Position numbers and translations under genes: made by a program. A DNA stretch of 64,000 nt from Botryllus schlosseri (Eukaryota). The stretch covers positions 16,804,001 to 16,868,000 of the forward strand of contig CM119371.1 in the NCBI GenBank assembly GCA_051294905.1, in the 5' to 3' direction. The first letter of the stretch is position 1. Each line of letters begins with the position of its first letter. The notes below the pieces were generated by a model. It searched no databases. It saw nothing but the letters and a program-made list of their open reading frames with translations, and was not told the DNA's origin. Positions 22,101-42,445 of the stretch are shown here, piece after piece.

Positions 22101-22339
22101 GTTCCCACGAAGCATCTCATAAGAGTTGAGGAAAGCCGAAAATTTTCGTCGCGCATCGCGCGTGGTGAATGCGGAATTGCCAGTATGATATTACCGGTTA
22201 ATATTTGGATTATTGGAGTACTTCTACTCGTACTTGAGTAGATGTGTTCGTCGCTAGTTCTATTTCTGCTAGATTGGCCTTCTTGACTGAGTTGACCGCC
22301 TATGATAATAATCGATATAATAAGACGCACAGTAATTAT

Positions 22340-22847
22340 TGGGGCTGGGCAAAATGATTCGGGTGCTCGAATCTGAATCGAGTAGTAATTTTAATGATTC
22401 GAGTCGAGTAGTAAAAGACGATTTTTTCGAGTACTGAAATTATACGGTCCTCGCAACTGAAAGTTAATTTACTGGCGAGAATTATAGCTTTGATACTATT
22501 TTCCACTGAGGAAGCCGTGAAACCTTGATTGGCCGTGTTTCAGCGTACCAGGCACAGTTTAAAGCTACGAACGTTACTGGAAATAACACATTTCCGAAGT
22601 CATTATCATCCAACAAAATTGTTAAGAATAAGTGCAATGCAATCGGTATGGTCGAAAAAATACCGAAGCATCTTTAATGTGATGGATATCAGGAATTAAG
22701 TTCTTTGTGGTGGCAGAAAAGGTTCATATTTGGACTTGGACATAGTACATCATGTTGTGACGTCATAATGAGTGATACTCGATTACTCGAAGCATATTGC
22801 GTGATTCAGAGTCGAATCACTCAGGTACTCGATTTTGCCCATCCCTA
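22340..22847. mobile_element. hAT-type MITE
   Basis: TIRs TGGGGCTGGGCAAAAT / ATTTTGCCCATCCCTA; perfect 8-bp TSD GTAATTAT. A shorter relative lies at 24990-25127. Confidence 0.88.
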
Positions 22848-24503
22848 GTAATTATAAGGACTAATCCACTCGATTACGGATTCGGAAATGTACCACTACT
22901 TGAATTGACAACCATCCTTACAATAACAAAAAATGTTACGATACCAAACCGGAAGGTTTGAACTGAACTATATGGGAATGGTGAATGATTTTTTACTCCA
23001 AGGCAGCTCAAACCTCGCCAAAAGCGTTGCCATTATTTTGGTGCGCGGACGGCTCAGTCTTGTCGCGTTAACGAACATGCTTCAAAGTAAAATAATTTCT
23101 TGCTTGATTAATGCAGTTTTTGATATCAGACATACGACAATCCTCGGTTTCCGTTAGTGTATTGCTGGACAGACGCCGTATTCTGAGCAGATGTTGCGGC
23201 CTGAGCGGATGCCGTTGTTCCCATGCTCTACTCCCAAAGGAACAAAATCATCGGCATCTGTTAGGTGAATTGTCACTTGCAGCATCGAGAATGGGGGGTG
23301 TACGTCAAGAGCTAAATGTGATTTTTACACACCATGGTATATGGGACATCCGGTTGGGTGACCACGCTAATACAGTAGAAGCCCTATAGCGTAATGGTGG
23401 GCTAACTAGAAAATTTTCGGACAGCTTTCTGCCTGTCTGGTAATCGCGCCATTAAAGGTTTCCGTTCACTTCTTATTTGCCGTCCGACGGTCGGCTAGCA
23501 TGTCCATTGTCCGCGTTCAAGTCGAAATACGGGCAATTGAATGCAGTCCGTGCCCAATATTGCAGGACCACGACTGACCTATTCAATCAATCTCGCTCCC
23601 CATGACATATATATATAGTCGCTTTTTGTCCTGACATATATATATAGTCGCTTTTTGTCCTGTACTATCTTATTTACCCTAATTCAGTGTGCATTGTCTA
23701 GGCCGAGGTGGGAGTCTGATTCCCGAACCACTTCGACATACTCCTGTCCTACAAACCGATCACGTTTTCATGATGCATCGGACTTAGAGAGTTGCTGGTA
23801 AATCAATAATGATGACCAGAGATGGTCAATAACGCACTTTCTCCTCTTTATTGAGGGAATTTGAATTGGTTTTTGCCTGTTCGTGACTACTTTCTCTGGA
23901 CACCACTCTTATTTCTACTTGAGTAAAGGGCCCGACGTTGCTTCTACTCCAGTAGCGACTGTGACTTTACCACGAAAGACCTTGGAGACTTGTAAACTGA
24001 CCTCCAATAAATAACACAATGCCGAAAGAAATTATCATTACAAGAAATTCAGCAGGCATTGCTAAAGAGACACCTTTGATGACGTCACATTCTACGTGCT
24101 GCTCCCCGTGAAACATGCGACAAAGTCCCGACAATAAATCTGTTAAAACAACAGGAATTACGCGTCTGATATGATAACTAATTCCATTGCCCGACGGTAG
24201 TTGGAAACTGTGTGAAACTGTGTGCGGCAAACAATATTGACAAGGTGTGTTGGTTCTACTTTCACGTGACCTGTTGTTGCATGCAAACGGGGAACTCTGG
24301 CATACTATGCAGGGTGGGAGCAATGGGCTTAGTTGGCAGGGGTGCTTCGCGACTCAAATGGTGGAAATTGCTTTAAAGGGAATGTTTGGAGACGGAATTA
24401 TTGGCGTTTGGTGTAAAAAATCAAAACAAAACTCATTACATGGCTCAGCTTTATGTCTAAATTACATTAAAACCGCTAAAAGCCTTTTAGAGGGGCTTTT
24501 TAA

Positions 24504-24653
24504 TGACAGGTATGATTGAAAATTCAAATGAGGCCTGGGACTAATGTGGATAATGTGTTGAGATTTTGTTCCAAGTGACAGGTATGATTGAAAATTCAAA
24601 TGAGGCCTGGGACTAATGTGGATAATGTGTTGAGATTTTGTTCCAAGTGACAG
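24504..24653. repeat. Perfect 72-bp tandem duplication
   Basis: TGACAGGTATGATTGAAAATTC...GTTCCAAG starts at 24504 and again at 24576. Confidence 0.95.
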
Positions 24654-27086
24654 ATTTCCATTAATGGCCGTTGGTAGGACATCCATTTCCAGTAAATTAT
24701 TCATAGGGAATCCAAAAATAAAACTAGAATGCCTTGCCCTTAAAGAATAAAAAGGGAATAATTGATTTAACATCTACTTTGAAAAACCTCTATATAAGAC
24801 CACCGACTGTGGCGTTGTCACGACAGTACGCTGGAAGTATCTACGGGGGCAGGATGAAAGATAGCTATACGGGCTTACTTATGGTGTTAGGGCGAAGCTA
24901 TGCCCGAAGTTAGAGTGACTTTCTGAACACTAAACTGTAAGTCTATATTGCTGACGGGGGCCTTTGTTGTATTTAAGACATGCTATTAATGGGGCTGGGC
25001 ACCATGATTCAGGTACTCGAGACTGACTGTGACATCACAATGAGTGATGTTCAAACGCTCGTTCGACTTGAACATAATGCATGATTCTGAATTAAATCCC
25101 ACAGGTTTTCAATTTTGCCCAGCTTTAGCTAGTGGCTATTAGTGGGGATAACAATAAATAAATAGGATAACTGGTATCTGAATCATACAATAGGGACGGC
25201 CTAGCTAAGTAATAGGTGGGGCCATGCACGATAGGAACCATACTCCACATACCTTATCTGTGGTTTGGAGGGAACGCCACTCTCTGTAATAGTAAAGGCG
25301 TTCACGATCAATTGGGTTTTGTTTCCGCACCACGTACGAAGAAATATTGGCGTTTGACACAACAAAATGTTCCTCGAAGTTATCCAGGACTAAAATAACA
25401 GGGAGAGGGTGCCCCTTCACATCGCTCGGGTTTGTGAGATCGGCAAATGCATTCCAGGTTCACCAGTCCCGTCTTGTGAGGCCTGGAATCAGCGAGAATG
25501 CGCAATAGCCCAAACGGTGGGTTGGTGATTCTTCGCTAGGTTCCTGGTGCTGCAGATTTTTTTTCAGCATTGAAGTCGTGAGTGCGTTACGAAATTCCCG
25601 GATTGAGGCCACGCCTATCTGGAAGTGTTGGATCAGCGGGAGGCTATGTCCAGTTCTGAGATATCTAGTAAAGAGCACATGGTTGGGAACCGACTTGGAT
25701 AACTGGCTAATTCTAGTGGTCTAATTTCACTAAATTAGAGTAAAATACAAGTGATCTAATTCTGATCTAATTTAATATTTTACTGAAAATGCTTTGTCTG
25801 CAGCACTTTTGCGCTAAGTCAACAAGAATGTCCCTCTTGCATAAGTAAATCTGTTGCCAACTGCTACCGCATTACTTTAACGTTACATCGTCCATGCGAT
25901 CAGGGTGGTAATTGTGACGATGTTAGTACAACGCCGAAGCCGCTTCGGGTTTCTGCTAGTGCGGGATAAAAATGGTAAGACACATGCAAACAGGTGAGTG
26001 TAGAAGGGTCAAAGCTAGGTGTACAGACGTTGAGCGTACTCATGCTCATGGGAATGCACAGTAGTTTGATATCAATTGAACTCAGTAAAAAAAACTGCGA
26101 TGCCCCAATCCTAATACTAGCCTAATCTGAAAAGACTGAAAATTTTCTGGTTGGCCAAGCCTTGTTGAGGATTCAGTGATGCTCTTACAGTTGAACTGCT
26201 GGCCTAATCCGCACGTAAATAATAACACATTGAGAATTAATATCAGAGCGGAAGTTACCTAGGGGGAGTGCCATAGTAATTAACTTCTAATGAATTCCTT
26301 AGGGGTAAAGGAGTTTCTTTACCTAGCTACTTTACCTGCGTTTTTTTTTTTTTTTTTTTTCGGTAATGCCGGTGCGTTGGACAGGTAGTGTTTTACGGGG
26401 GTCTGAGAGTTGTAATTGTTTCCCAATAACTACGGTTGCAGGTAGCACTGAATGCATAGAATTTTTTTAGCCAAGCATACATAGTAGCAAGGTTATCAGT
26501 GCTCTGCGTTCGGACACCGTATTGATAGTATTTAAACCATTTCATGATAGCTGGTTAATGTGCTTTGGGAGCGCAATTTTCATAATAAAGAAAGGAACCT
26601 ATAACAAGTTCGTTACAGTTGATACCTCCACAGATGATAATAATTTACTTAGCACTTACTCGGAAATTATATTTCCTGCTATTATTAAAGTGGCATTGCA
26701 TTTCTGGACTGTTACCTGAAGAGAGCAGTATAAGTCAAACATAATTGCAATGATAATCCCTTATAATATTTGCCTTTTTTGTGCCAGAACATATTCTCGT
26801 TACAATTTTTGCTGTTACACTGGGGATCTGTATTGATGCGGCAGATGCGAATGAATGCTGACCCCTTGTGGATTAGATTTATGAGAGTGTCGAAGCAGTA
26901 TGTGGACTGATTTGGTTTATGTTTTCTTTTTATTTAACACTGTTCAGCGGAGGGCTCTGTTAAAGGGGTTGGATTGAGCATACACAACGCTTACATCAGT
27001 GAAGGTAAGAAATAGTGTCAATTGTCAGCAAATAATTGGACAAGCAGATTAGTACATATATGATACCTGGTATTGTTTCTCTAAGC

Positions 27087-28376
27087 CAGGGGTCGCCAAC
27101 TCAAAATGGGTTGCGGGCCACTTTTCAAAATTCCTAGAGGCCGCGGGCCGCATGACATCACTATCGAGATTAAAGTAGGCAACGCAGTTTAACAACCACG
27201 ACTGATAACTCTACGTTAGTACAATGCTGTGCTCTCTAGCATGGGCGACGGGCATAGTCTCCACAAAAGAAATAATATTTTATTGAGCAAACACAAATCC
27301 AACAAAAAATATCAAGATCATCAATTTCATTATATTTTGAACTATGAGCTGTGCACAACAACACTCTGTAGCGCAAATAAAACAGGGGTGGCCAACCTAT
27401 TTCCTATTCACGGCCGCATTTCAATTACTCAAATAGTCTGCGGCCGCATTCCGGTGCATAGTCGTAGTGAACTAACTGGGGCAAAATGGAAAATACCCAC
27501 GTTAGACTGTCCATGTCCATCGCCGGTACACTCCAGACTAATATATTTACGCATATCGATTTACTGTGCGCACCGAAATCGTCATAATAAAACGAGACAC
27601 GCGGATTAGACCTGCAGTCGCGCGAAGCGCGAAAAATTTTTCAGGTTCATGAGTGAATTTCGTCATTAGATATTGGTATAGTTTCATATATCGCGGTAAA
27701 ATATTTATCCTTTTTCGGCCAATGTGATCTGATTCAGCGGTAGAGATGATGCAGGGATTGTCTTCGAAAACGTAGGGAAGTTATTAATGCTGTGCTGCAT
27801 CTTGGTTGGGTCAATTCTTATTATTCCCCTCTGTTGCATGCAGTTATTTCTTGACCTCCCATCAGATTTGTCGAGAGTCAATTCGTAAATTCAAGTTGCA
27901 TATTGACGGCCGCCAACATACCTAATTGAATTAAATGTCGACAGCCGCCTAATTTTCCTTCTACTGTCGCAGATTGGCCACCACCGGATTAAAAAAAATC
28001 GATATTTGGGTTAGCTAGACACGGTAGTCTACTTGCTGGAAAACGATCTCTTCGTAAAGCATGGTCTTTTGGAGAGCCCGAAGTCGTTTTTCACGGGTCT
28101 AGATCTTGGCAGTGGTGGACCATTGCACGTCAAGGCAATATGCCCATTCATACCAGCTAATTGTCCCTCCATGGAATGATATTATCATGCCGAAGCCGTA
28201 TATCAGCAAGTGAGGAATAGTGATATTGGACACAGCAGAATGGCTTACTTTGAAGAACAACAAAAATATCAATTTCAGCATTTCAAAATGCTTCACTAAG
28301 CGTTCTTCGAAATTTTTCCAAATCAGGCCGCGGGCCGCAAAATATGACCTCGCGGGCCGCGTGTTGGTGACCCCTG
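27087..28376. mobile_element. Charlie-like hAT non-autonomous element with a nested second MITE (about 27383-27986)
   Basis: TIRs CAGGGGTCGCCAAC / GTTGGTGACCCCTG; perfect TSD CTCTAAGC. The inner element starts CAGGGGTGGCCAA. Confidence 0.9.
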
Positions 28377-28559
28377 CTCTAAGCTGTCATTGTACGTAAC
28401 GAAGTAGAATTTCACACTGCTTGACAATTGTAGTGGGTTTCTGATAGATTGGCATAATTAGTATTTGGAACAGAGCTAAGATAGTGATTACTTAATCTCA
28501 GTCATTAAAAAATGCCTATATTGGTAAGGATAGAGACTAATTGAAATTTTATTTGCCAT

Positions 28560-29520
28560 CGCTGAAAAGGCAGCTTGCGATATCTGTACCAAGTCGATTG
28601 TGGGCATAAAGCAAATGCATGTTCATCGTTCACGCATGGTCCTACTCAACATTGGAATCTATGGCCATAGTCCTCTGTGGTGAAAAAAACATTGTGAACT
28701 TGGCAAACTAGCTTATTACTTTCTTCTGAGGCTATATTGTAGTCTGGTGTATGTATATGGCTCGTGTTGTAAGTTGCAAAATAAATGTACTTGTAATTAC
28801 TTCTAAAGAAAAAGCACCATCTTGTAGGTGTATTAATCATCGCGATAGCGAAACTATAATTGATTGAATTTAATATTGATTGATTTTTGATATTAATTCT
28901 CGTTCTAGTAATTCATTTTGAAAAATTCACACGGGTCCAGCGGGTCGCTATACCTATGAATGTTGAATCATAGACAATACTAAATGTGTTTACTTTTCAA
29001 TGAACGACACTATTCGTTATGGCAGAATTACAGGTTCACTAATTAAGCAATGATCAGTGAGCCGGTATGATCACCGTAACGGGGTTAGCCAACCTAGCTA
29101 TTTCTCAAGAATGATAAACAGTATTTTGTATCGCGATAAGAATAGCTATTTCTAACTGCTGGTATAAGTTGTACAAAGTTTGAATAGATGTAATACTTCG
29201 ATGCTTCTTACCTTGTGGTATTAACGCATCCACATCATTGGTACATTAATTGAAATTGCCCAGGCCAGTATACCAGACAGATTTATAAGTTTTATGGCAT
29301 CTACCACAGAACGATTCCAAATAGTTAAGCCACTATAGAGACTGTGAGGTTGAAATTTACCTGAATTCTTTTTTGCCAATCAAGTAGACCGTCATAAGGA
29401 TTCCGCCCAATCCAAGCAACGTTTCAGCAACAGTGATCTATGCTGGTAAGTGGTATCACACACTCGGTGAACTTTGGATATTAGAACCAGTTGGCAATCC
29501 CGGCTCTTTGAAAATCTGCA
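28560..29520 (-). pseudogene. Possible decayed, spliced class-A GPCR-like gene
   Basis: Minus-strand segments next to GTAA donor-like sites translate to ITVAETLLGLGGILMTVYLIGKKEF (TM1-like), IWNRSVVDAIKLINLSGILAW (TM2-like) and KLVCQVHNVFF...TMAID (TM3-like). Stops and frameshifts are present. More exon-like pieces lie between about 26.4 and 31.15 kb. Confidence 0.3.
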
Positions 29521-31967
29521 ACGCCACGAAGTTATATACCATTAAGCATTGATTAATTACTGAGGAAGGTTAAATTTACGCTGAAACTGCGTCACGGTGA
29601 TTGATTGCTTCATACCAATACCGGGGTTTATATATTATCAATGGTATCACCAACCATGACTTACCCGGCGTGAGGTTTCGAAAATCAAGTCCGGCCACTG
29701 TTTTTCAGCTGCATTGAAACTCACTCCTAATTGGTAAATATAGAGCCATTTTCTTTGCCTGAATGCCAGTAGATGCAAGCTCACGCTGAATAGACGTCCA
29801 TACTGTGGTATCTATCTGGATTAAACCGTAACAAGACCTTTATAGGCTTAAAAATAAACTGTATTGACAAACTCCAACTCATCAGCAGTTTATAACCCTT
29901 CTGAACAGCATGCTGCAGCCTGTTGATAACTGTCAGTTTTCTGCACTATTATAAGGTAATTTGCATATTAGGTCTTAAATTCTAAACAATAAGGTAGCCT
30001 CATCTCATTTTTAGTAAATTCAGTGTTACCGGTGATTTTACCTATTTGTAGAGGGCATTTTTACCTACGTTTGTTCAAAGCTCTGTGTTTTTGAGGGAGG
30101 AGAGAGTATTTTATTTTTAACTCAGTCTGGACTAGGCAGCAGATAAGACAGCAATAATGGCGATACAGAGTACACTGCATGATATTTGTTATGATAAGAT
30201 GCGATCTCACAATATTCTCATGCAGATTACTGAGCCTTTGATAGTGGAAAAACACAATATTATGAGCATATGATGTTCCACCGATGGTCATAAATCACAC
30301 GTCTTTGCATTTAAGCCAAAAAATATGCTTAACAATATTCAGAACTGACGAAAGATTGCAGATAACTGGATAATTTTGCTAATTGCTGAATATTCTTGTT
30401 ACGTTATGGTTGGTAGTCAGTTCATTTCAATTGTATAGATCTTAAATCACTCATGGGCCCAAACTCCAAAAACTAAAGCAATGAGATCTGGATCTTCAAG
30501 TATTACGAGTTTTGAAATCACCAGAGTACTTTAATTGTTGAACCCTAGTGGCCTTCTGAGTTGTAGGTATATAAGCATTAGGGCCAATTCTAACTTGGCT
30601 GAGTATAGTTCAATAGTGTGAGGCTACTTTTGAAGACATGATATACACAAATAATAGATAGTCACCGTTTTGTTGAAAACCTTTCATTAAGATGATATTG
30701 AGTGTGTATGAGAGAGAGAGTAAGTACTGAAAGTAGAAGTAGAACTAAACGGGTGTGAAGACCAACTCCAAACAACGACCACCTATGTTGTAAGAGAACC
30801 ACCGTGTGTTCATTATGAATAGGTATGGTAATCATCTTGAAATAATACGCCATTTATTTATTTATTCATTTATTTATAAAAACTTGTTCGATATGATGAA
30901 GTATTGTTGAAGCATTTCTTTTTATTGTATAAATATATTTCTTGAGCTTGGGCATAGAGCCGATATTACGGTGTTCGCTGCTTGGGGGTAGTGCCTGGTG
31001 TCGGCTAGCGGAACCGTCTATGGCGCGACCCAATAGCTCACAACAATGAGATAAGTAACCCTTTTTCATTAAAACCGTAGAACATCTTAAGAATCACCTA
31101 TGAAAATGAATTCTTACCTTGTTGGACTGCATCCAACCGCAAAGTGATGTGAAATTGTAATGATGTATATAAGGTATATTTTTGTGTGAGTCGTACGTTT
31201 GTCCCTACCCTATGGGGTTGGTAATGTAGTAATGAGGTATATATGAAGTAGATTGTGAGGAAATCTCACTTTTTGACACCCATGGTTACGCGAGTAGACG
31301 CTGCATTTCAGCCACGATAGGGAGGAAGGAGGGACAAATATATTGTCGCAAACTATGTATATAAAGTGTTACAGTATGTATATATATAAGCTTAAGCACC
31401 CACGAATAAAATTGATAAAAGAATTTTAAAATTAAATAAAAACTTGTGGCGGATAAAACATACAATAAGAAAATTTGCCATGTGAAAACATAGTATTCAA
31501 AAATCAAAGAAAAAATTCATAAAATATCTAAAACGAATATCTAATGATAAAATGCCCTTGTGGGTTACCAAAATGTTATCTAATATAACTTAGATAGGAT
31601 ATGAAGTTGGAGTCGGACTTGGGATTGGATTTGGGCTCGGAATCGAATTCAGACCCCGACGTGAACCATGTGATCTGAAAACTTTTCGTGTATAAATTTA
31701 TGATTAATTTACACCAATTATGAAATATTAGTAGTGATAACATGTGTCCACGATTACGCTGCAAGGAATCCGAGATCGAGCACTCAGTCTGGGTACCACA
31801 AAAATATATGTCTCTCGATCAAGGCTGAAATCGCTGAGATCACTGAGATTCCTGATGATGACACATACGTTATCAGGAATATCAGAGTATCTATGTGACA
31901 TTGGCCGATGAGTCTAATTTAAGGCTCCGCCATTGGAAACAATGGTATGACTTCGCCACGAGTGACA

Positions 31968-32301
31968 GCACAGGACTGGAAATGATAGATTATCCAGAGA
32001 AGCCTGGAAGACTAAATTAATAGGCACAGGACTGGAAATGCTAGATTATCCAGAGAAGCCTGGAAGACTAAATTAATAGGCACAGGACTGGAATGCTAGA
32101 TTAACAAGAGAAGCCTGGAAAACTAAATTAATAGGCACAGGACTGGAATGCTAGATTAACAAGATAAGCCTGGAAAACTAAATTAATAGGCACAGGACTG
32201 GAAATGCTAGATTATCCAGAGAAGCCTGGAAGACTAAGTTAATAGGCACAGGACTGAAAATGCTAGATTTTTCAGAGAAGCATAGAAAACTAAATTGATA
32301 G
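31968..32301. repeat. Six tandem copies of a 55-56-bp unit (GCACAGGACTGGAAATGCTAGATTATCCAGAGAAGCCTGGAAGACTAAATTAATAG)
   Basis: Copies start at 31968, 32024, 32080, 32135, 32190 and 32246. Confidence 0.95.
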
Positions 32302-33004
32302 CTATGACTGATAAAGTCTTAGGGTACACTCAATGATTTTGCATCCCTATCTGGTTTAATTAAACTATGTTTAATGAAGAAATAATATATAACCTGAATA
32401 AATAGATATATATGATAGCCTATATGTGTAGTAATAGGGATGTATATATAATCGGAATAAAATAGTATGGTAATTAGGTTAGAAAAGACCCTAGAACACA
32501 TAGGAAAGTGTACTACAAACAATATGAACTTGAAAATGGCAAATAAACTGGCCCCATCCACACATTTGTTTTCCGAAACAGATGTGTCGATGATCAAGAA
32601 CCACGTTAGTCATATGTCCGACCTGTCGACACATGCGTTTTACGAAGCGGGTGTGTCGACCGATTGTTATATCGATATCTGTACAAGATTTATGACAATG
32701 TTATTTTAACGAGTTAATTTTTGTGCTATAGACGTAGGCATAAATTGCGTCATGAAGCACAAGTGCCATTCTCATTTTCGAAATTATAAAACAGATCAAA
32801 TACGATATCAAGATATTCTACACACCCGTGTAGTTAAGCTATCGAATGAATCGATGACGGGACATATTAATTCATTCCGCACGAGTTTTTCGAAAGCTTG
32901 TTCCGTCAAGCACTAATGTACCGAGAGGACAACTAGTTATACAAGAAGATGGAATCACCACTCCATGATATCGCGATTCTCCCGGACAAAACGGCAGCTA
33001 TATT

Positions 33005-33690
33005 CCACCTTGCAATCGCCGAGCTGAATTTTATAGATTGGTGACATTTTCGTCCATATCAAAAGAAGCTTCAGTATTGCCAACTGATATGACGGCCGCG
33101 AGATTTTATTGGTCTGGATACAAAGATAGAGTGAAGTGTTCCAGCTGCGGTGTAAACATGGACTACGCCTGAAAAGCGAGCAAAAAAACCCTCACCGGCC
33201 GCCGAAATAGGAACGCAAATACGCGTCGCTCGAACCAGATTGTCAGAGGAAGATGCCAAGAAGATGCAGTTGGACAGCATAAGATTTAGCAGAAGGCACA
33301 CAGAAAAGAGCCACCAGCAGACGATCAAATATTCATTTTACTGTGAACGATGTCGTACAAGACCCTTTGATACTACTCGATATAGTGCCAGTCGATTGAA
33401 ATACACAAACTGCGCAACAGTCAAAGAGTAGACTGGGCAACTCTGTTTATGCTAGAAACAGAATGGGGACGCCATCAATAATAGAAATTGCATGTGTTGG
33501 AGAAATTGCTGAGAATCTGATGGTTATACAAGAAACCATACTTTGCCAACAATGCAAGAATAATAGGAGTGAAATTACCCTGATCCCCTGTGGACATCTG
33601 GGTCTGTGTCAAGAATGTTCGTCCGATGCTGAGCGCTGCATATTCTGCAATGGGAAAATATCGCAAAAGATCAAAGTGTATGGAGCTTGA
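33005..33690 (+). pseudogene. Intronless inhibitor-of-apoptosis (IAP)-like gene: BIR domain plus C-terminal RING, disrupted
   Basis: 33026-33172 translates EFYRLVTFSSISKEASVLPTDMTAARFYWSGYKDRVKCSSCGVNMDYA*, matching the BIR pattern E..RL.TF/GFY/D.VKC..C; the TGA sits where Trp is expected. 33541-33690 translates LCQQCKNNRSEITLIPCGHLGLCQECSSDAERCIFCNGKISQKIKVYGA, an IAP-type C3HC4 RING. The BIR part is absent from the supplied ORF track. Confidence 0.85.
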
Positions 33691-33923
33691 CGGTGCAGGC
33701 AAGACAAACGTATTTCTGTCTAGTGGACTGGAAACAAAGTTGTGTAGTGAAGCTAGTTCGCTTTATTATGTTCAAATACTATAATTACTATGTTCTTGAT
33801 AATTACTATCAGGTTGCTTTAAATGGCGCTAACATTTTCATGACCTGAACATAGTTAAGACTTAATGGACATTTATTATATGAATAGTAAGTTGTCGCTG
33901 CATAATTGCATTTGTAGTTGACT

Positions 33924-33933
33924 GAGGGGGAGG
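33924..33933 (+). other. Candidate polypurine tract (GAGGGGGAGG)
   Basis: 10-nt purine run downstream of the IAP stop and about 1.1 kb upstream of the PBS. Confidence 0.35.
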
Positions 33934-34577
33934 TCATATTACTACGTATTGAATCATTGCGTGATATACTGGTATGTGTATTGTTGTTCACACACATATT
34001 TGGGTCGCCGTTTAATCGAGTGGTACATGATTAATCGATATTTGTTTGTTTTGTGTTAACCGTATTGATGTAAACTATTAATAATAGTGCATGACGATAG
34101 CAGGGTTTGACTAAGTGAGATTTGTGACTAACTACCGTATATGTAAATAGCTGGGCCCTTTAGGGATAACTAGGGTGTATGTGTAAACGACATTAAATTA
34201 GGAAATTACTTGTCCTTGACAAGTTGTTTAATGTCACAAGTAACTAAAATAAATACCCCTTCCTATAATAACGTCACAGATTCTCCACAAAGTCAAACCT
34301 GTTACAATGAGTGTTTATATTATTTTCTGTTGTGCCGTCTCGTACAGTAAGGCGTCATAACCGACCACGCCTTATGTTAGTGTCGGGACCCTTCACCCTA
34401 ACGGGATAGAAGTTTAGGATTCGTGGTATATCAGATCTATGATCTGTGAGACACGGTGCATACGAATGAATAAAAAGCTTAAAACACCAGTACCATCGAA
34501 CCCAGAGATATAGTAGATTGTGATCAAAATACTATTGTAATTGAGTGTTGTGTAATGACACAATATTTCATGAATGA

Positions 34578-34691
34578 ATTTTTCGGCAGGATAGGCCGTC
34601 ACATGAACTATATGTGTAAACCAACCTTGGAGCTGCTTTTCGGCAGGACAGGCCGTCGCATGAATTATATGCGTAAACAGACCTTGGAGTA
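34578..34691. repeat. Two copies of a ~57-bp unit in the putative LTR
   Basis: TTTTCGGCAGGA(T/C)AGGCCGTC(A/G)CATGAA.TATATG.GTAAAC..ACCTTGGAG occurs twice. Confidence 0.85.
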
Positions 34692-35072
34692 TTGAAAATG
34701 TTTATTAATCGTGCATGTTGATGAATAGGTTTAGATAAAACTTGTAATATAATTGAAGCATGTTTACCAATTTTATAAGGTTTTACTCATAGGAACCTCA
34801 TTCCTCTTTGCATGGTTATAATTGGAGTATTTGGTTGTATTAAGGTTTAGCTTACTAGTTATACCAGTGTAGTTTTAAGTTCTGGACCTGAAGGTCATTG
34901 ACTGATTGGATCCAGCTGCTGCTACCCTTACCACTGCTTCGATCACCATTTGTGGATGCTACAAGGTCACAACATCAACACAGATAAGGAAAACCAACAC
35001 TGTGAAGTAAAATCGAACCAAGTGTAGACTCTCGCAGTAACAAGCGTTATTGGAGCTGCACTATAAACGTAT

Positions 35073-35093
35073 TGGAGGCACCAAGCTGGGATT
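35073..35093 (+). promoter_or_regulatory. Primer-binding site complementary to the tRNA-Thr(AGU) 3' end
   Basis: TGGAGGCACC-AA-GCTGGGATT versus TGGAGGCACCGCTGGGATT expected from a metazoan tRNA-Thr (tRNA sequence recalled from memory); 2-nt insertion; lies 440 bp upstream of the gag ATG. Confidence 0.75.
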
Positions 35094-35124
35094 ATTACTT
35101 CCGGTGTAGCACGTTGACCTATAA

Positions 35125-35493
35125 ATGTGTTCAAAGACGACCATCGTTAAAACTGCATTGGTCGTGGCCCTGATTGCGTCTGTAATTTCATTGTTAGTTA
35201 CGTTGTCACCAGTATATCTACATTTGGTACCGGGGTTTTCTTCAACTACAGTTCCGATTGGAAACGGAAGACCTAACAACGGAGTTACAACATCGTCCCC
35301 AACTCTTATTGGCTCGCAAAACATATCTGCATGACGCCAATTTATCATTACTAAAGACTCGCTTTCTAAACTTTTGGAGTTCGAGACTAACGACCACAAC
35401 TCATCACTCGGAACAACACCGCGGCCTACCTTGGACGACCCGACCATCTCCAGCGTAAAGCTGGCCCTCGAAAACTCTACTACGGGTCTATAA
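35125..35493 (+). CDS. Leader ORF with an N-terminal signal/anchor helix and Ser/Thr-rich tail, in frame with gag; internal TGA at 35332
   Basis: Hydrophobic helix ALVVALIASVISLLVTL; the frame stays open after the TGA until TAA at 35491-35493; NIS, NSS and NST sequons. Confidence 0.55.
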
Positions 35494-35514
35494 ATCAAAT
35501 CTATTACTATTGCC

Positions 35515-38457
35515 ATGCGAAGAATCTTGAAACTATTTAAAAAGAAGAAATCAACGGAGGCATCGGCGGAGCTAAAGCAGGGAATCCGACTGCTTAAATA
35601 TACCCAAAAGCGTCACGAAGATGTGCGAGACCAAGAGAGGCAATACGCTAAAGATGTGGCCGACCAGACAAGAGTCCTACAGGAGGTCAAAACGACCCTG
35701 CCTGAGGCAGTGAAGGAGCTGGAAAAAGCAAGAAAAGACGTCCGGCGGGCTCAAGCTGACCTGAAGGCCGTTTGTGACGCCACTTCAAAAATTACTGGAA
35801 AGGTTTCCCCTGACGTATTAAACGAGATCTTGCAGACTGAATTCGAGCTGGGTAAAGCCTATACGCAGGTGGTAGGAGAGAAACCGCCTCCTCCTCCCGC
35901 CCTGGCTGTAGTACCCTCAGCGCCTCCTCCGGCCTATGATCCACCAGCTATCCGTATGGTCAAGGAGACTCAACCTATGCCCACCTTCACCGTGAAAAAG
36001 GGGTTGCATTGTCATACAGTAACGGCGGTCTACCCTACGCACCCAGACGCGAAGGCTGATGCCCCATCTCGACCGACACCGGTTGCCCGTTCACTGATGG
36101 CTCCAACCTTTAGAAAAAAAGGGAATATGCACCCGGCGATGAAGACCAAAGATGCTGCTAACACGCCCATGGCATATTGGACACCTACGGGAGTGGCGAC
36201 AGGAGGACCGATGAGACTGGAACGCGAAACAGACTCCGAATTGGACAGTAAACATCTGCCCTCATTCCGGAAACTGGTGTCGAGACCTCGAGATGCGAAG
36301 GGTCAGCGGCGGGACATTGACAAGTTGGGTGATGTTGGGACACGAAGTAGTCGGGCAAGAAAGTCGCCGAGCGACGATAAGCACGTCATTTTCCGTGGAG
36401 AAGGGGAGGAGTATGATGAAGGAGACTCGGAGGGTCAACCAGAAGATTCTGATTCTGAAAGTTCGACGACATCCCGACTGCAGAGGCTTGTACAGCAAAT
36501 GGAATCCACACAGGACACCCTCCTGGAAGCTACTCGAAATGCTTTCCTTGAAGATAGTGGCGCTTCCCGAGAAATTCTCCGTGGTCCCGAGTATTACGAT
36601 GCGCGCTATCTTCCAAATGGCCGGGGGAATCCTGGAATGCCGCGTTTCGCATCTACTCCAGATGACAGTGATGATGGCCGCCCAATTCAGCCGCTCTCGC
36701 GACAGATGGAGGTAATAGTAAACCCAACGCTAACTACACCTGTTAGATTTCAGTCCGAAAAGGAAATGATACAGTTGATAATGGATCCGGGGGACATGCC
36801 TCTTCTCAAATGGATGGAGAACACAATGAGGCGAATTCACCACGGTGAAGGTAATACTGATGCTGATGTAATATTGATGAATGCAATGCAAAAGAAATTG
36901 AAGAATGCGGGGCGTTACAAACAAGCTGATCATCTTGGAAACTTCTTCAACACAAACTCAGGAAACGCCAGCTGGGAATCCGTTATGAGGTCGCTATCAC
37001 TTTCCAACCCGCAAGGAATTGTAAACAAGGAAAGAATTCTCAACGATTTCCGAAGAAATTATCATTGGGAAGATGAACCCCTTCCTCTACTTAACAGCGC
37101 CCTGAAACAACTAGAGATAGACATGGACGATCTAGTTTTGGATAATCCGGACGGGCTGCGACTCTTCCGCAATTTGAGACAGCAGCTGCCGGAAGCGCTC
37201 AGGTTGATTATTCGAGGGTGGGAAGAACACACCTGGCGGAAAGTCGCAGAAGAACTACAACTGTTCTGGAATTCGGAATTCCAAGATGAACAGGAATCGA
37301 GTCCGACGTCTCAGAGAACCCGAAGAACGCAGAAGAACGAGTCGGCCTTGCCGCCTGTACATATCTATAATGTACAGCCAGCTGGGCCTGTGGTACATAG
37401 CTATCCGACTCACCCTAACGGAGATGGACAACGGGAAATACCTCTACAGCCTACTTCCTCGTCATCACATCTTCCGCCGGAATTCGACGCAACGCCACCT
37501 CGACCTCCCAGAATCATCCCTTTACAGCCTATTAAGAATATAGGACAGGTTACACAACTACGCCGAAATCCTGTTCGCAACGCAAGATTAAACCGGCCTC
37601 CTACTAACGTATCGAGTGGTATCGGGCCAGGCAGACGAGCGCAAACTACTAGGAGAATGCTGGAACGAACACAGAATGTACAAGGCGCCTCTGCTGGACC
37701 CGATACCCAGCCTCTACATATTTCAGGGTCAGCACAATCCGGTCAACAACCAGGAACTTCAAGCCAAAGAAGCCCACGGACAGAAGGAACACAAGATTCT
37801 GGAGTGGGACCAGATAATACGCAAATCACTCCGTCAAACAGTCAGGAGGCTCGCCACATCGCGGAAAGCCAAGGTGAGAGGTACAATTTCCTTAGAAATG
37901 ATAATATATTTGCCCCATTAGGTTTGTATTTGAATCCTTCCCAGGGCCAGGCCCTTTCGGTATGTTATTATTGTAAGGCTCCCGGACACCAATCCCGGAA
38001 TTGCATTGCCAAGTTTATCCTTTGGCTAAACAATGAGGTACTCTCTAGAGTTAGCGAATTGGGGTGGGCAATCCATAAACGGGTCCGACCGGTACCGCAG
38101 CGTATTAAGGAATCCGCTGAACGCAACTGGCGTCCGTTCCTTACTACCCATGGATTATTGACGATTTCAGACCTTGATCGGTATCTCATATCCCATGGTT
38201 CTCCCCCGTTGGCAGAAAGAACGAATCTATGTGAGGCCTATTATGATAGTAGACCTAAAAACAGAGATAGAACCCACTGGCACGATAGGGGCCAATGGGG
38301 TCCCAGGGGGCCACCCGCGAATCCAATTCCTAATAACGGCCAAGTAAACTGGATTGCGCCTTCATATAGACAAGAGCCGCACCAATATGCCACCTCTTAC
38401 TGGACAGATGAGGAATTAGAACGCTTACGCGTTTCAAAAAACGGTTGGGGGCGCTGA
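35515..38457 (+). CDS. gag: Gag-like polyprotein, 980 aa
   Basis: Intact ORF with a GCCATG start, basic N-terminus, coiled-coil-like region, PSAPPPAY (35914-35937), a helical capsid-like middle, and the CX2CX4HX4C knuckle CYYCKAPGHQSRNC (37963-38004). Confidence 0.88.
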   Translation: MRRILKLFKKKKSTEASAELKQGIRLLKYTQKRHEDVRDQERQYAKDVADQTRVLQEVKTTLPEAVKELEKARKDVRRAQADLKAVCDATSKITGKVSPDVLNEILQTEFELGKAYTQVVGEKPPPPPALAVVPSAPPPAYDPPAIRMVKETQPMPTFTVKKGLHCHTVTAVYPTHPDAKADAPSRPTPVARSLMAPTFRKKGNMHPAMKTKDAANTPMAYWTPTGVATGGPMRLERETDSELDSKHLPSFRKLVSRPRDAKGQRRDIDKLGDVGTRSSRARKSPSDDKHVIFRGEGEEYDEGDSEGQPEDSDSESSTTSRLQRLVQQMESTQDTLLEATRNAFLEDSGASREILRGPEYYDARYLPNGRGNPGMPRFASTPDDSDDGRPIQPLSRQMEVIVNPTLTTPVRFQSEKEMIQLIMDPGDMPLLKWMENTMRRIHHGEGNTDADVILMNAMQKKLKNAGRYKQADHLGNFFNTNSGNASWESVMRSLSLSNPQGIVNKERILNDFRRNYHWEDEPLPLLNSALKQLEIDMDDLVLDNPDGLRLFRNLRQQLPEALRLIIRGWEEHTWRKVAEELQLFWNSEFQDEQESSPTSQRTRRTQKNESALPPVHIYNVQPAGPVVHSYPTHPNGDGQREIPLQPTSSSSHLPPEFDATPPRPPRIIPLQPIKNIGQVTQLRRNPVRNARLNRPPTNVSSGIGPGRRAQTTRRMLERTQNVQGASAGPDTQPLHISGSAQSGQQPGTSSQRSPRTEGTQDSGVGPDNTQITPSNSQEARHIAESQGERYNFLRNDNIFAPLGLYLNPSQGQALSVCYYCKAPGHQSRNCIAKFILWLNNEVLSRVSELGWAIHKRVRPVPQRIKESAERNWRPFLTTHGLLTISDLDRYLISHGSPPLAERTNLCEAYYDSRPKNRDRTHWHDRGQWGPRGPPANPIPNNGQVNWIAPSYRQEPHQYATSYWTDEELERLRVSKNGWGR

Positions 38458-38479
38458 TTGATCCGGTAAATCAGCTCCC
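38436..38479 (+). promoter_or_regulatory. -1 programmed ribosomal frameshift signal (gag-pro)
   Basis: In-frame A_AAA_AAC heptamer at 38436-38442, a 5-nt spacer, then the stem GGGG(C)GCTGATT / AATCAGCTCCC; the protease ORF is in the -1 frame. Confidence 0.85.
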
Positions 38480-38954
38480 TGACACAATATTACCCAAACA
38501 TGTTAAAACTGTACATAATGCTTCGTTACCTTTATTTACATTCCTTGATTCACCGGACAAATCGCTACAACCGGATTTCGCGGAATTATTCGGTGGACAA
38601 CTTTTATACCTAGTGGATACAAACACAGACACTAAATTTCTTGCCGATACTGGCAGTATTCCCAATTTGATTATGAAAAGCGTAGTAAAAAATAAATATC
38701 CAAAAAGCTGGGCTGAACGACAGCCACTTGATATGAAATTGCGCGGAATAGGAGGGTCGTCCCGAGTCGACTCCCTAGTAATAGTACCTCTTGACGGACT
38801 GCAAGTTCCATTTGCAACTGGCAAAGGAGTTCCTCTTAATATAGTGGGGCTAAAATGGATTGACAAAGTACAACAATTACCGAGTATAGATTCTGAATTT
38901 AAAACTCCGTCTACTGATAATGAAGGATTGTCATTGGCAACACTACATGTATGA
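38445..38954 (+). CDS. pro: Retropepsin-type aspartic protease, expressed by frameshift
   Basis: FLADTGS active site, LRGIGG flap and NIVGLKWI helix motif. Confidence 0.88.
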   Translation: MGALIDPVNQLPDTILPKHVKTVHNASLPLFTFLDSPDKSLQPDFAELFGGQLLYLVDTNTDTKFLADTGSIPNLIMKSVVKNKYPKSWAERQPLDMKLRGIGGSSRVDSLVIVPLDGLQVPFATGKGVPLNIVGLKWIDKVQQLPSIDSEFKTPSTDNEGLSLATLHV

Positions 38955-40999
38955 CTTTACGCGATAAAAAGGACGGAACCGGAATTGGAAACAGTCCTTG
39001 CAAAACTGTGACCAAGGATGGGTTGGTGAAAGCTGCAGAACAGCAGAGCGTCGAGACGGCAAGGGCCGCTGGCGCTGGCGTCGAAGTGGCAGGGGCTGCT
39101 GACGCAAACGTTGGGTCGGTAAACACCGCTGACGTTACAATAGAAAAGAGAGACTCTTTGGGTGCCGAGCAAGGAAGGCCTGCTGACACCTGCCAAAATC
39201 GCGCCGAGCGAGGAAGTCCCGCTGACGCAAATGGAGTTCAAACTAATGAAGGAGGCTCCAATGATGTAGGCAATATGAGCGTCGAGTTGGCAAGGGCCGC
39301 TGACGCACACGTTGGGTCGGTTAACACCGCTGGCGTTACAAGAAATCAAAGAGACTCTTTAGGTGCCGAGCAAGGAAGTCCTGCTGACACCAGTCTAATT
39401 CGTGCCGAGCGAGGAAGTCCCGCTGACGCGAATGGGGGTCAAACTAATCAAGCAGACCCCGAGGATGTAGGCAAAGCTGCTTGTCCAGATGACGGTAAGG
39501 CATCAGTGCGGAATGATCCCACGACAGCTGCCGTCATGCCTACTTCACTCAACAATAGTTCCAACGCAGCTACTACATATTTTCCGGATATGAGTCCGGA
39601 GGAGACTAAAGAGGAGTCTGGAGATTTTAGGATGCAAGTCTCTCCAGAACAAGGACCCCCGTCGAATCAAAGTTCCGGCGGCGTGACGTTAGGCGTGGGC
39701 ACGCGCCGAGATCAGAGGTTAACACGAATAGGTAGGGAAGTCCCGCTGACGGAAAAAAACCTCGTCCTCTCCCCACCAACTAAAAAATCCCGATTATCGC
39801 ATAAGCTAAACAGAAGGATGAACGGTTTGGTAACCACGTACGTTCTACAAGAGGGAACCAGTGCTGAGGTAAATACTGAACTTGAGGTCCTGCGCCCACA
39901 ATCAATTGAGCTAGCAAAATTGCCATATACGCCCCTTGATTTGACTACGCCAGAAAATACCATTATCGCTGACAACGTATGGTCAGAGGACTATAAACCT
40001 TTTGCGACTGAGCTGGAAGATCTGCGATGCCATCTTAGCGTGCCCCATTCTATGAAGTACAAGTACGACAGCGAACTAAAAGACCCATCAACTAAGCCAT
40101 TTGTCTCTGGCCCATCTAATGTGAAAGGTGAAAGCCATACCAAGTATTTACATGAAGCTGTAACCATGTGGTCAGCAAATATAGAGTCATGCGCGGTAAA
40201 ACCAATAACGGAGAAGTACCAGCAGCACATAAAAGAACATGGCCAGGCTGATAGAAAAAATACAATAGCTATGGAAGCCTACATTTCTCTCAGCACAAAG
40301 ACGGCCGAAGATAACTTACTTCTCTTACGAGTTGGGTTTAAAATAAAGGAAGTGATTTATCTCAGCACGATGCAAGTATTCGCGTCAGATGGATTGTCCC
40401 GATCCTATTGGATAGGAATGGCAGTAGGAGATGACGATCCCCGTGCTGCTACTCCGAAAAGGGAAGAAGTAACCCATATTTTGAGTGCATATCAACAAGA
40501 AGGGGTGCAACGAACATTAATGTACCAATTCGGGCATGCAGAGTGCCAAGACTCGACAAATGGATACCACCGATTGGAATACATACATGCGATTGTACAA
40601 GGCAAACTGAAATCAATTGTTGAAATGACCGAAATAAAAAACGTCATGATAAGTTACGATAGGGCTGTAGTCACGAACTACGGTTTGGCCGCGACACACG
40701 AACATACGAAAGGGTCGATTCCCCGCTACCGGGAGTACGGAGGTGACGGTATGTTATGTCACATGACGACTGAATTGAACACAAAAGTTCTCATGAACGA
40801 GGGGATCAAAATGATAAACAGAAAGTTTGTTCATCCTAGTAAGTCAAAGACGACAAAGATGCTAGGCCTGAAGATTGTTATCAGCATGAATGCGGCGGAC
40901 CTGATTACTGAAGGTGTGAAATTGCTACAATCTCCAAATCCCGATGTTGTGCTGTGTACAGGGCCAATACCGGTGAAACCAGTGCAATTGGGAAATTGA
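38951..40999 (+). CDS. 682-aa ORF: repetitive disordered N-terminus, unassigned middle, C-terminal Tpt1/KptA-like domain (about aa 519-678)
   Basis: Motif order LMYQFGH / NGYHRL / YDR / LAATHEHT / LCHMT / EGIKMINRKFVHPS / ISMNAADLITEGVKLLQSPNPDVVLCTGPIP parallels Tpt1 LS..LRH / DGWV / K.R / IRA.QGHS / .YHGT / EGL..M.R..VHLS / ID......G......S.N.V.L....P. Confidence 0.75.
   Translation: MTLRDKKDGTGIGNSPCKTVTKDGLVKAAEQQSVETARAAGAGVEVAGAADANVGSVNTADVTIEKRDSLGAEQGRPADTCQNRAERGSPADANGVQTNEGGSNDVGNMSVELARAADAHVGSVNTAGVTRNQRDSLGAEQGSPADTSLIRAERGSPADANGGQTNQADPEDVGKAACPDDGKASVRNDPTTAAVMPTSLNNSSNAATTYFPDMSPEETKEESGDFRMQVSPEQGPPSNQSSGGVTLGVGTRRDQRLTRIGREVPLTEKNLVLSPPTKKSRLSHKLNRRMNGLVTTYVLQEGTSAEVNTELEVLRPQSIELAKLPYTPLDLTTPENTIIADNVWSEDYKPFATELEDLRCHLSVPHSMKYKYDSELKDPSTKPFVSGPSNVKGESHTKYLHEAVTMWSANIESCAVKPITEKYQQHIKEHGQADRKNTIAMEAYISLSTKTAEDNLLLLRVGFKIKEVIYLSTMQVFASDGLSRSYWIGMAVGDDDPRAATPKREEVTHILSAYQQEGVQRTLMYQFGHAECQDSTNGYHRLEYIHAIVQGKLKSIVEMTEIKNVMISYDRAVVTNYGLAATHEHTKGSIPRYREYGGDGMLCHMTTELNTKVLMNEGIKMINRKFVHPSKSKTTKMLGLKIVISMNAADLITEGVKLLQSPNPDVVLCTGPIPVKPVQLGN
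39080..39472 (+). repeat. In-frame 201-bp (67-aa) tandem duplication inside ORF3
   Basis: VEVAGAADANVGSVNTAD... starts at 39080 and VELARAADAHVGSVNTAG... at 39281. Confidence 0.92.
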
Positions 41000-42445
41000 A
41001 AATACTGCAGGGGGTCCGTCATTTGTGCACAGAATGATTAGTTTGTACTTCCCAGGAATTTGGCTGCACAATGAATTCAAACGGACAAAACCTAAACCCC
41101 GTAATTAGATATATGCTGAATCAGCAGGAGTGCATTTAATACAAGAGAATAATTGATGAGAAAAAAAGGATTCAAGTTAGAGTGTTTCACATGAAAGAAA
41201 TCGATTATTTCATGGGTAAACATGAAATGGGACGTGTTGCACATGTTCCGGGAAACCAGGTGAATAGTATATGTGTTCCAATAATTTAATCATTTCGAAC
41301 TCAATCACAGCTTAGCCGTATAATTCCCAAGTGAGATCAATTCTAAAATCCTTTAAAATATGTTTGCTATTTTAAAGATAATTTCAAGTGAAATTTATAT
41401 GTTTGATTCATGATATAGTCGTTTGTTAGAGAGACTCATCAAGTTTATTTATATGCATGAAACAGTGTAGATCTCGAAAAAGCTACTTTTTGAATGGATT
41501 CTTAACGATTTCATCTACAGCTGGCAGATTGCATCGTGTCTTATATCACCTAATCAACCTTCTGATTGGAATGATGAATAGTATGATGTTTGCGAAAATT
41601 TACACAACTTTAAAATTGCAATTCCAGCCGTTTTTCGGATTTGTTTCTTATAGGCGAAAAAAAGTGCAGAAACCTGCGAAAGTGTTTTTAGTAATCATGC
41701 TCTAAGACACCACAAAATAATTATTTGTATACCGTAAATGCCATATCATTTATGAATTCCAAATATATCATAAAACAGCATCAAATAATCAAATAATCTG
41801 TTTTTCATTGATTGATAACATGATATCGACTTTTAGATTAATACGCACAACGCACTATGTACAAATACTCGAAATCGATGGTCTGTAAGTACCCAATTAC
41901 AATTCCAAACGCACATCCTATTTGCATCATATCCTTACCACTTCTAGGCAGAAATACTGGAAATGGCGGTGGCGGTGGAGGTGGAGGTGGATGTGGTAGA
42001 ATACGTGGAGATGGATTTTCTTCACTGAAGCCTGTTACATACGGATATGGATATTTACAGCATCCAAAATGGTAAACCTACGGTCATTATATAACCACCA
42101 TTTGTTATCTCACTCGCAATGTAACCGATGCCTGGTTACACAATATTAGCGACACCTTTATCAGTTTCATGACCTTACTCTGATGTCGTAGACTTTGGCT
42201 TAACATGAACAGCCCTTTTACGACGAGAGAAGCTACTCCAGTATATAAAACATACCACTAATATATATGTATACATCTGGCGTACGGAAATGTCAATGTC
42301 TATTATCCCGGCACATAAAAAGTGGTCCATAAAAACAGCAAGCTGTAGTTTAACAACGATTCGGCTTAAGTGATATTCTCTTTGGTGTACTGTTGGACTC
42401 CTTTTAGCAGGATCGGATGAGGCGGAGGAGATGGGATATCGACAT

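Follow-up and report, generated by a model that had tools for sequence, protein, structure and literature searches.

Retrovirus-like genes between Merlin/IS1595-type ends: a family of mobile units in Botryllus schlosseri

What kind of mobile element carries a retrovirus-like gag, a protease and a Tpt1-like domain, and how are its copies inserted? The question is raised by a 64,000-nucleotide stretch of the Botryllus schlosseri genome (GenBank assembly GCA_051294905.1, contig CM119371.1, positions 16,804,001 to 16,868,000 of the forward strand), here called the window, in whose numbering positions are given unless another locus is named. An earlier sequence-only reading had placed a virus-like retroelement at 31156–41005 and had taken it for either the 5′ part of a larger element truncated near 41 kb or a non-autonomous partner supplying particles and counter-defence functions. 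Comparison of genomic copies leads us to the following description: the window probably holds a non-autonomous copy of a family that joins a retrovirus-like gene set with ends and a transposase of the Merlin/IS1595 type, and an RNA and particle cycle would be part of how this family moves.

Limits and ends of the mobile unit

Searching the 495-Mb source assembly with gag DNA returned 69 matches, comprising 13 loci at 86–100% identity (the close copies) and many more at 70–73%. The close copies remain colinear far upstream of 31156. At the other end, 41279 is the last shared base in all ten close copies aligned, and the flanks beyond it are unrelated; a distant copy (C12) included in the same alignment aligned poorly at this end. 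Setting the window against the most compact copy located the 5′ boundary at 16334. The opening 387 bases (16334–16720) have 13 genomic matches, one per close locus, and 11 of these, the window's own counted, begin exactly at 16334. Junctions were read at 11 copies, ten of which carry a perfect 8-bp target-site duplication, with a different 8-mer at each locus. By these common ends and duplications, the unit that contains the gag-protease block extends over 16334–41279 (24.9 kb) rather than 31156–41005, and the block of long open reading frames (ORFs) forms its 3′ part. The ends of the window copy are the following:

16326–16333, no strand: left 8-bp target-site duplication, AATAATTT, with the identical 8-mer at the right flank
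16334–16348, + strand: 5′ terminal inverted repeat, GGGTCAAGTATACTA, 11 of whose 15 bases pair with the reverse-complemented 3′ end
41265–41279, + strand: 3′ terminal inverted repeat, ...TAGTATATGTGTTCC, pairing with the 5′ end
41280–41287, no strand: right 8-bp target-site duplication, AATAATTT

The terminal inverted repeats are short and imperfect, their ungapped score over 30 bases being matched by 48 of 10,000 random 30-mer pairs. From inverted-repeat ends together with 8-bp duplications it follows that the insertions were made by an enzyme that cuts with an 8-bp stagger. Across the family the units measure from 14.0 kb to about 60 kb, and the longest contain nested insertions. No direct terminal repeats (long terminal repeats, LTRs) were seen in a self-comparison of window 26000–50000, no direct repeats of at least 100 bp spaced by at least 1 kb in the 40 kb around two fuller copies, and no LTR-like direct repeats in 20-kb stretches of three copies.

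Truncation near 41 kb is ruled out because the sharp 3′ end is common to the copies and a target-site duplication adjoins it; the block is thus not the 5′ part of a curtailed element, and 41279 is a natural end. The nearest relative of the window copy is 98% identical over gag and the window's duplication is perfect, which fits a fairly recent insertion.

Genes of the unit and its fuller relatives

The genes that the sequence-only reading had missed in the window and hoped to find in other copies turned up only in part: reverse transcriptase (RT), RNase H and env are present in relatives, but no integrase or tyrosine recombinase was found, and a transposase of the IS1595 type takes their place. 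The compact 14.0-kb copy, of which about 11.8 kb was read, shows in order a 5′ repeat, frames of 327, 842 and 853 amino acids, the membrane ORF, gag, and Pol with an intact YIDD motif. All its genes lie on one strand, the frames are open where read, and the gaps between them are below about 300 bp. A homologue of the first frame in another copy matches PF12762 (DDE_Tnp_IS1595) at E = 3.6e-13 with 50.2 bits (cut-off 27). This IS1595/Merlin-type transposase gene (tnp) is the sole recombinase gene found in the family, and the inference that the family's own transposase inserts the units is well supported.

The two envelope-like genes, env1 and env2, are paralogous, with 22% identity over about 300–400 N-terminal residues. 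The env1 product has a basic furin-type site with a hydrophobic stretch directly after it, a heptad-rich region and a C-terminal anchor, and its nearest matches in the ESM Atlas are class I fusion glycoproteins (0.88–0.90; a lead only); env2 of the C12 copy has a Ser/Thr-rich stretch and an anchor. At all 41 loci with a full-length env1, tnp lies directly 5′ of it, and the reading frame is free of internal stops in 47 of the 51 matches ranked best for tnp and in 31 of 41 for env1. The association of tnp, env, gag and pol is seen in sub-groups that are 30–40% divergent in sequence, and one sub-group of six copies has the order gag-pol-tnp-env1-env2.

Several further observations concern these genes. 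In this six-copy sub-group, as laid out in the C12 copy (L011:6227–9721 and L019:725–1771) and in a copy on C7 (L009/L010), tnp lies in the pol frame after one stop, with no Met near its start; a single stop between Pol and tnp would allow a read-through Pol-transposase fusion, with the transposase where the integrase normally sits. An unrelated LTR-type fragment with a protease motif and frameshifted RT-like frames (L019:8214–9955) adjoins the 3′ end of the C12 copy. More than 20 loci have two transposase paralogues on the same strand (about 61% and 42% to the query), 17–32 kb apart and mostly 22–25 kb, for example C5:27008043 and C5:27032535 or C4:22817613 and C4:22842086, the first being followed by env1; such pairs suggest still larger units with two transposase genes. 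In a group of env1 sequences at 64–70%, seven of nine copies have a TGA inside an otherwise open frame of about 870 amino acids (for example C12:7425362–7427977 and C16:20636260–20638881), two of these with a TAG as well, and the TGA could be either a shared mutation or a recoded stop.

In the window, coding capacity is concentrated in three long + strand frames, 35494–38457 (987 amino acids), 38412–38954 (180 amino acids) and 38924–40999 (691 amino acids; ORF3), and few frames elsewhere exceed 110 amino acids. The features of this block are:

35125–35331, + strand: small membrane protein ORF, 69 amino acids, one hydrophobic span (hydropathy 2.57 over 19 amino acids)
35515–38457, + strand: gag, 980 amino acids from the first Met, with a polybasic N-terminus and an all-helical core
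38436–38483, + strand: −1 frameshift signal, slippery A_AAA_AAC at 38436–38442 in the gag frame and in X_XXY_YYZ register, 1-nt spacer (predicted fold)
38412–38954, + strand: retropepsin (Pro) with a DTGS motif at the active site; 79% identity with the N-terminal part of Pol in the relatives
38924–40999, + strand: Pol remnant with a variable linker, the RT N-terminal part, a palm fragment and a Tpt1/KptA-like domain
40334–40996, + strand: Tpt1/KptA-like domain, weak in the window alone (E = 0.014)

The Gag has a CCHC knuckle (Pfam E = 5e-4) and the late-domain motifs PSAP and PPAY at residues 141 and 145. Its nearest ESM Atlas clusters are CCHC, Retrotrans_gag and PNMA (0.89–0.93; a lead only), a Gag profile searched against the PDB gave only matches of E = 0.78 or weaker, and the structure model of residues 400–700 is poor (predicted local distance difference test, pLDDT, 43) and shows only an all-helical pattern. 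The stem-loop of the frameshift signal (38444–38483) has a predicted fold of −20.2 kcal/mol (z = −3.5; one of 200 shuffles folds as well), and two relatives with a DNA identity of about 72% have retained both the slippery site and the stem-loop, with folds of −17.2 and −16.7 kcal/mol. For Pro, no sequence-level match was found in Pfam, nor one of the Pro profile in the PDB; its DTGS motif is invariant in all five sequences, the model of residues 60–165 has pLDDT 62–94 per 10-residue block (most 81–94), and every match listed by Foldseek for this confident core against the PDB is an HIV-1 or EIAV protease, the best at E = 4e-4. The membrane ORF, about 180 bases 5′ of the gag start codon, is kept in all 12 close copies (78–100%) and in the three distant copies tested (50–58%).

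ORF3 is what remains of a larger Pol. Relatives at 70–73% DNA identity have a full Pol of 1165 amino acids with RVT_1, RT_RNaseH_2 and PF01885 (E = 2e-5 and 4e-6). Aligned with it by blastp, ORF3 retains residues 186–525 (the linker and RT N-terminal part), 642–709 (the palm fragment) and 948–1163 (the Tpt1-like part); residues 526–641 and 710–947 are deleted in frame, and with them the RT core and RNase H are gone. The YIDD motif is destroyed by a 3-residue gap (about 40280–40288). Within the linker lies a 201-bp tandem duplication (39078–39474, copies 86% identical) that gives about 67 extra residues relative to distant relatives. Four other copies do not have the break that separates Pro from ORF3 near 38.95 kb, and in them a single frame of at least 516 amino acids runs through; a second programmed frameshift at this point was rejected, the break being peculiar to the window copy.

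The Tpt1-like domain is clearer in the family than in the window. A C-terminal profile of five sequences matched the Tpt1 chain 8tfi_A in the PDB at E = 1.9e-16 and ten more Tpt1 sequences at E ≤ 1.1e-3, and PF01885 matched a relative (P0019) at up to E = 9.6e-11. Among the residues of the catalytic tetrad, which we take to be Arg-His-Arg-Arg, all five aligned sequences have the His and the last Arg, and four have the first Arg, the window having Gly in its place. Much of the sequence-only reading of this block was sound: the long, nearly uninterrupted ORFs in an otherwise poor region, the large Gag with late domain, the frameshift cassette, the membrane ORF upstream of gag, Pro, and the Tpt1-like end of the last ORF are all present. 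Its statement that there was no RT is accurate for the core and the YIDD motif, but not for the N-terminal part and the palm fragment.

No rve integrase was matched by Pfam in the window ORFs, in the Pols of two full relatives or in five Pol-like proteins of other assemblies, and no tyrosine recombinase in any ORF scanned. A Pol of the Pro-RT-RNaseH-Tpt1 type without integrase was also found in several clusters at 50% identity, in other assemblies and on two marine metagenome contigs, which also encode a Gag C-terminus and a shifted Pro frame (4.7 kb each, with tnp and env beyond their span). Fusion of Tpt1 to a reverse transcriptase is very rare among predicted proteins, a search of 1.84 billion representatives giving 17 matches at E ≤ 1e-10; protein databases hold only a handful of relatives, and the viral contig collection returned no relative of Pol. 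The closest Pol matches outside the family are Ty3/gypsy-type polyproteins at 22–29% identity. No tRNA genes, with which the putative primer-binding site of the sequence-only reading could be matched, were detected in the window or in 22 loci scanned. Self-cleaving ribozymes had no Rfam match at E ≤ 1 in window 16000–41700 or in five related loci, and a ribozyme-made circular RNA as the reason for the Tpt1 domain is unsupported, as no ribozyme matched.

Spread of the RT-deleted form and the remainder of the window unit

The RT-deleted form is present at at least ten loci, in units of 22–25 kb. At least seven of the nine other RT-deleted copies align across both deletion junctions in one piece, so the deleted form itself spread. 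Among five RT-deleted copies, the ratio of nonsynonymous to synonymous substitution rates (dN/dS) in gag is 0.27–0.38 in nine of ten pairs and 0.80 for the closest pair, while the Pro-linker segment of the same copies gives 0.49–1.35; the gag of RT-deleted copies appears to be under purifying selection. A mosaic copy at C13:16470801–16472500 (L041) combines an RT-RNase H that shares 92% protein identity with the C12 group and a gag whose DNA is 86% identical to that of the window, against only about 72% for the gag of C12, and this suggests recombination between sub-families.

The RNA of the family and the 5′ part of the window unit contribute the following features:

34821, + strand: RNA 5′ end, 43 reads of single-cell RNA run X24 with a loose end
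16628–16720, + strand: remnant of an IS1595-type transposase, first 31 codons; tblastn with the L028 transposase 81% over 31 amino acids, E = 2e-10
16721–31924, no strand: variable internal region, without recognizable coding content, colinear with other copies of the sub-family
27087–28377, no strand: nested high-copy repeat, 1.3 kb, absent from other copies of the unit
31925–32315, + strand: 56-bp tandem repeats, six copies
32467–32709, + strand: small upstream ORF, 80 amino acids, weakly conserved (tblastn 33–48%, E = 2e-6 and 9e-6)
32969–33690, + strand: fragmented IAP remnant, with a BIR fragment at 33035–33163 and a RING at 33541–33666 in different frames

The loose-end consensus at 34821, some 300 bases 5′ of the membrane ORF, is presumably a template-switch oligo. 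X24 reads were matched at ≥93% likeness and may derive from any copy of the family, and the organism label of this run differs from that of the best DNA run. Over gag-pol the run has almost no reads (0 in seven of nine bins, below 0.3 in the last three). Runs X4 and X11, whose RNA nature is only a guess, reach depths of about 2–45 per bin over gag-pol and were not used as evidence of expression. RNA run X22 yielded no reads at all and carries no weight either way. Positions 24139 and 25253 are joined in 43 X24 reads and in X4 and X11 contigs. Because the skipped part ends in CT..AC, which is GT..AG on the − strand, the joint is an intron of a spliced antisense transcript inside the variable region.

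Beyond the 31 transposase codons, no trace of tnp, env1 or env2 was found in the window. Pfam searches of 63 ORFs in 14000–27100 gave only sub-threshold DUF6377 and PHD matches, presumably by chance, and the ORFs of 28400–34000 gave nothing convincing apart from the IAP domains. The 56-bp repeats have the same relative position as repeats of 76–78 bp in distant relatives, where these stand at the start of the homologous 5′ region, and the region of the small upstream ORF has DNA similarity to several distant copies. Many genome-wide copies of the nested 1.3-kb repeat exist at 87–93% identity. Another high-copy repeat of about 1 kb (84–97%, many contigs) lies at 12471–13489, with a partial inverted copy adjoining at 11656–12186. 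At 22067–23400 the contigs of runs X4 and X11 add up to depths in the thousands, as against tens elsewhere, with many internal joints; this segment is probably a very abundant repeat or RNA.

The IAP had been read as accessory cargo with a counter-defence role. Its domains are real, with a BIR at Pfam E = 6e-6 covering model positions 1–47 of 70 and a complete RING (zf-C3HC4_3, E = 3.5e-11), but they lie in different frames, and no IAP-like sequence occurs in 31156–32968. Of 12 loci examined, one is without the region and the other 11 all have the gene split across frames; no IAP remnant was found in the three distant copies tested (C12, C7 and C5). BIR and RING lie within about 630 bases without an intron-sized gap and so look like a captured processed copy; the IAP remnant is a decayed passenger of one sub-family, derived from a captured host gene. 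Co-conservation of the cargo, which the sequence-only reading had set as its test, holds across the family for the membrane ORF and for the Tpt1-like domain; the IAP is confined to one sub-family. The suggestion of a non-autonomous partner came close, the window copy being a non-autonomous derivative; counter-defence by the IAP is left unsupported.

Competing explanations and comparison with known systems

How would such a unit move? In the reading we favour, Gag, with its polybasic N-terminus and PSAP/PPAY motifs, would build budding particles that package element RNA, RT would copy the packaged RNA into DNA bearing both repeat ends, and the transposase would insert that DNA in place of an integrase. 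The window copy, which has kept gag, Pro and the Tpt1-like domain and has lost tnp, both env genes and the RT/RNase H core, would be mobilized in trans. Points in favour of an RNA and particle stage are the selection on gag in copies without tnp and RT, the kept frameshift signal, the late domains, the open env genes, the recurring integrase-less Pol and the position of tnp in one sub-group, where an integrase would be; we also count the processed-copy-like IAP remnant and the RNA 5′ end at 34821.

Other observations weigh against this reading. RNA that starts internally at 34821 cannot carry the 5′ repeat, tnp or env, and no terminal redundancy able to regenerate both ends by reverse transcription was found. 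Units of 22–25 kb with about 18 kb apparently non-coding are large for a packaged RNA and simpler to understand as DNA, and the position of tnp beside the 5′ repeat is that of ordinary DNA transposons. The low dN/dS of gag could stem from recombination with autonomous copies, and a mosaic copy does exist. The third Arg of the Tpt1 tetrad is not conserved (Ala or Val in four of five sequences, Ser in the fifth). For the gag-pol-tnp-env sub-group, the 5′ end was found neither within 27–30 kb upstream of two copies nor in the 800 bases upstream of a third copy's second transposase paralogue. One of the 11 copies with junctions read (C15:5849995/C15:5873976) has differing flanking 8-mers, possibly through recombination between two copies or later rearrangement, and all comparisons between copies are drawn from one assembly. 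A pararetrovirus-like route, in which a circular or tandem form would be transcribed past one round and the transposase would then cut at the repeats, would reconcile the points for and against reverse transcription. Going further, and more tentatively, with the odds somewhat on the other side, the family may represent a new class of reverse-transcribing element: an enveloped, retrovirus-like agent of marine animals in which inverted repeats and a Merlin/IS1595 transposase have replaced LTRs and integrase. RNA would serve as template for its DNA, perhaps in a circular or longer-than-unit form, the transposase would then excise and insert that DNA, and the Tpt1-like domain would process RNA or DNA ends or 2′-phosphates during the cycle.

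The most serious rival is a pure DNA transposon, moved by cut-and-paste through its Merlin-type transposase, with gag, pol and env as captured cargo that has no role in transposition and may serve cell-to-cell transfer or be decaying. Inverted-repeat ends, 8-bp duplications and a tnp near the 5′ end are exactly the Merlin-type pattern; transposase-less deletion copies of 22–25 kb at at least ten loci resemble non-autonomous DNA transposons, and both the want of LTRs or terminal redundancy and the internal RNA start agree with this explanation. We nevertheless regard it as rather unlikely, since gag is apparently under purifying selection in copies without transposase and RT, most of the more than 40 loci have open env1 and tnp frames, and the compact 14-kb copy leaves no room for separate boundaries. 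The integrase-less Tpt1 Pol lineage in several other assemblies likewise argues for long co-adaptation and not for inert cargo.

A nested composite, in which an LTR or other retroelement entered a Merlin transposon and was then copied jointly with it, would have precedent in the common nesting seen here, such as the 1.3-kb repeat at 27087–28377 and an 18-kb insertion in a C4 copy. It is nonetheless quite improbable: the retrovirus-like part has no LTRs, integrase, second boundaries or duplications of its own, the compact copy has single-strand genes with short gaps, and the association persists in sub-groups 30–40% divergent. Least credible of all is a segmental duplication of a host region holding a dead retroelement truncated near 41 kb. 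Colinear stretches of 15–25 kb common to copies on several contigs might be read in that way, but similarity breaks off abruptly at shared bases on either side, and the flanks are unrelated between copies. With perfect 8-bp duplications at 10 of 11 loci that differ locus by locus, segmental duplication was rejected, barring assembly errors at every one of these loci.

Three modes of integration underlie the classification of retroelements, namely an LTR with an integrase, target-primed reverse transcription, and a tyrosine recombinase. If the reading we favour is true, the family adds a fourth mode of integration, and DDE transposons gain envelope genes and with them a direct route for horizontal spread. 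Fusion of Tpt1/KptA to a reverse transcriptase points to RNA- or DNA-end chemistry in replication. For annotation, LTR-based and transposase-based pipelines would miss or split units of 14 kb to more than 30 kb. Full-text literature searches, as far as the texts were accessible to them, returned no described retroelement with an IS1595/Merlin transposase or a Tpt1 domain, and searches for Tpt1/KptA fused to reverse transcriptase turned up none. We could not find an earlier description of retrovirus-like genes joined to Merlin-type ends in the literature and protein databases, the ground covered, with Repbase and Dfam lying outside it.

Ty3/gypsy elements with env (errantiviruses, Metaviridae) and retroviruses share with the family a CCHC Gag, late-domain motifs, a −1 shift into Pro-RT-RNase H and envelope-like glycoproteins with class I fusion features. 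The family differs from them in being without LTRs or rve and in having inverted repeats, 8-bp duplications, an IS1595 transposase, a Tpt1-like Pol domain and two env paralogues, with tnp and env mostly upstream of gag. In the portions of an eLife 2026 survey of env-carrying Ty3/gypsy elements (PMC13524379) open to a term search, 'transposase', 'Tpt1' and 'IS1595' do not occur. Caulimoviridae resemble the family in their Pro-RT-RNase H without integrase, CCHC capsid protein and lack of LTRs, and if transcription ran more than once around a circular DNA like theirs, of which none was observed here, an internal RNA start 5′ of gag would be accounted for; they are, however, plant viruses without envelope, transposase or regular integration. 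DIRS-type elements have likewise swapped the integrase for another recombinase and lack ordinary LTRs. Theirs is a tyrosine recombinase that is not known to make a target duplication, whereas the recombinase of the family is a DDE transposase with 8-bp duplications.

From the side of DNA transposons, Merlin/IS1595 (IS1016) elements share with the family PF12762, short inverted repeats starting with GG, an 8-bp duplication and mobile, internally deleted derivatives. Merlin target-site duplications are 8–9 bp long, and Merlin elements are small and not known to encode anything but a transposase; the family's units, by contrast, reach from 14 kb to more than 30 kb, with gag, Pro-RT-RNaseH-Tpt1 and a pair of envelope-like genes on board. 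DDE transposons are stated to be without envelope genes in the accessible passages of a 2021 survey (bioRxiv 10.1101/2021.09.26.461848). The closest analogue in logic is Teratorn, the piggyBac-herpesvirus fusion of medaka, in which viral genes also lie between DDE-transposon ends and are inserted by the transposon's own transposase; the accessible passages of a review that covers it (PMC10175614) name no retrovirus-like counterpart. Teratorn unites a DNA virus with piggyBac in 180 kb, whereas the family joins a reverse-transcribing viral part to a Merlin-type transposase. If our reading is true, the family would be the reverse-transcribing counterpart of Teratorn and would extend the fusion of virus and DNA transposon to the RNA side.

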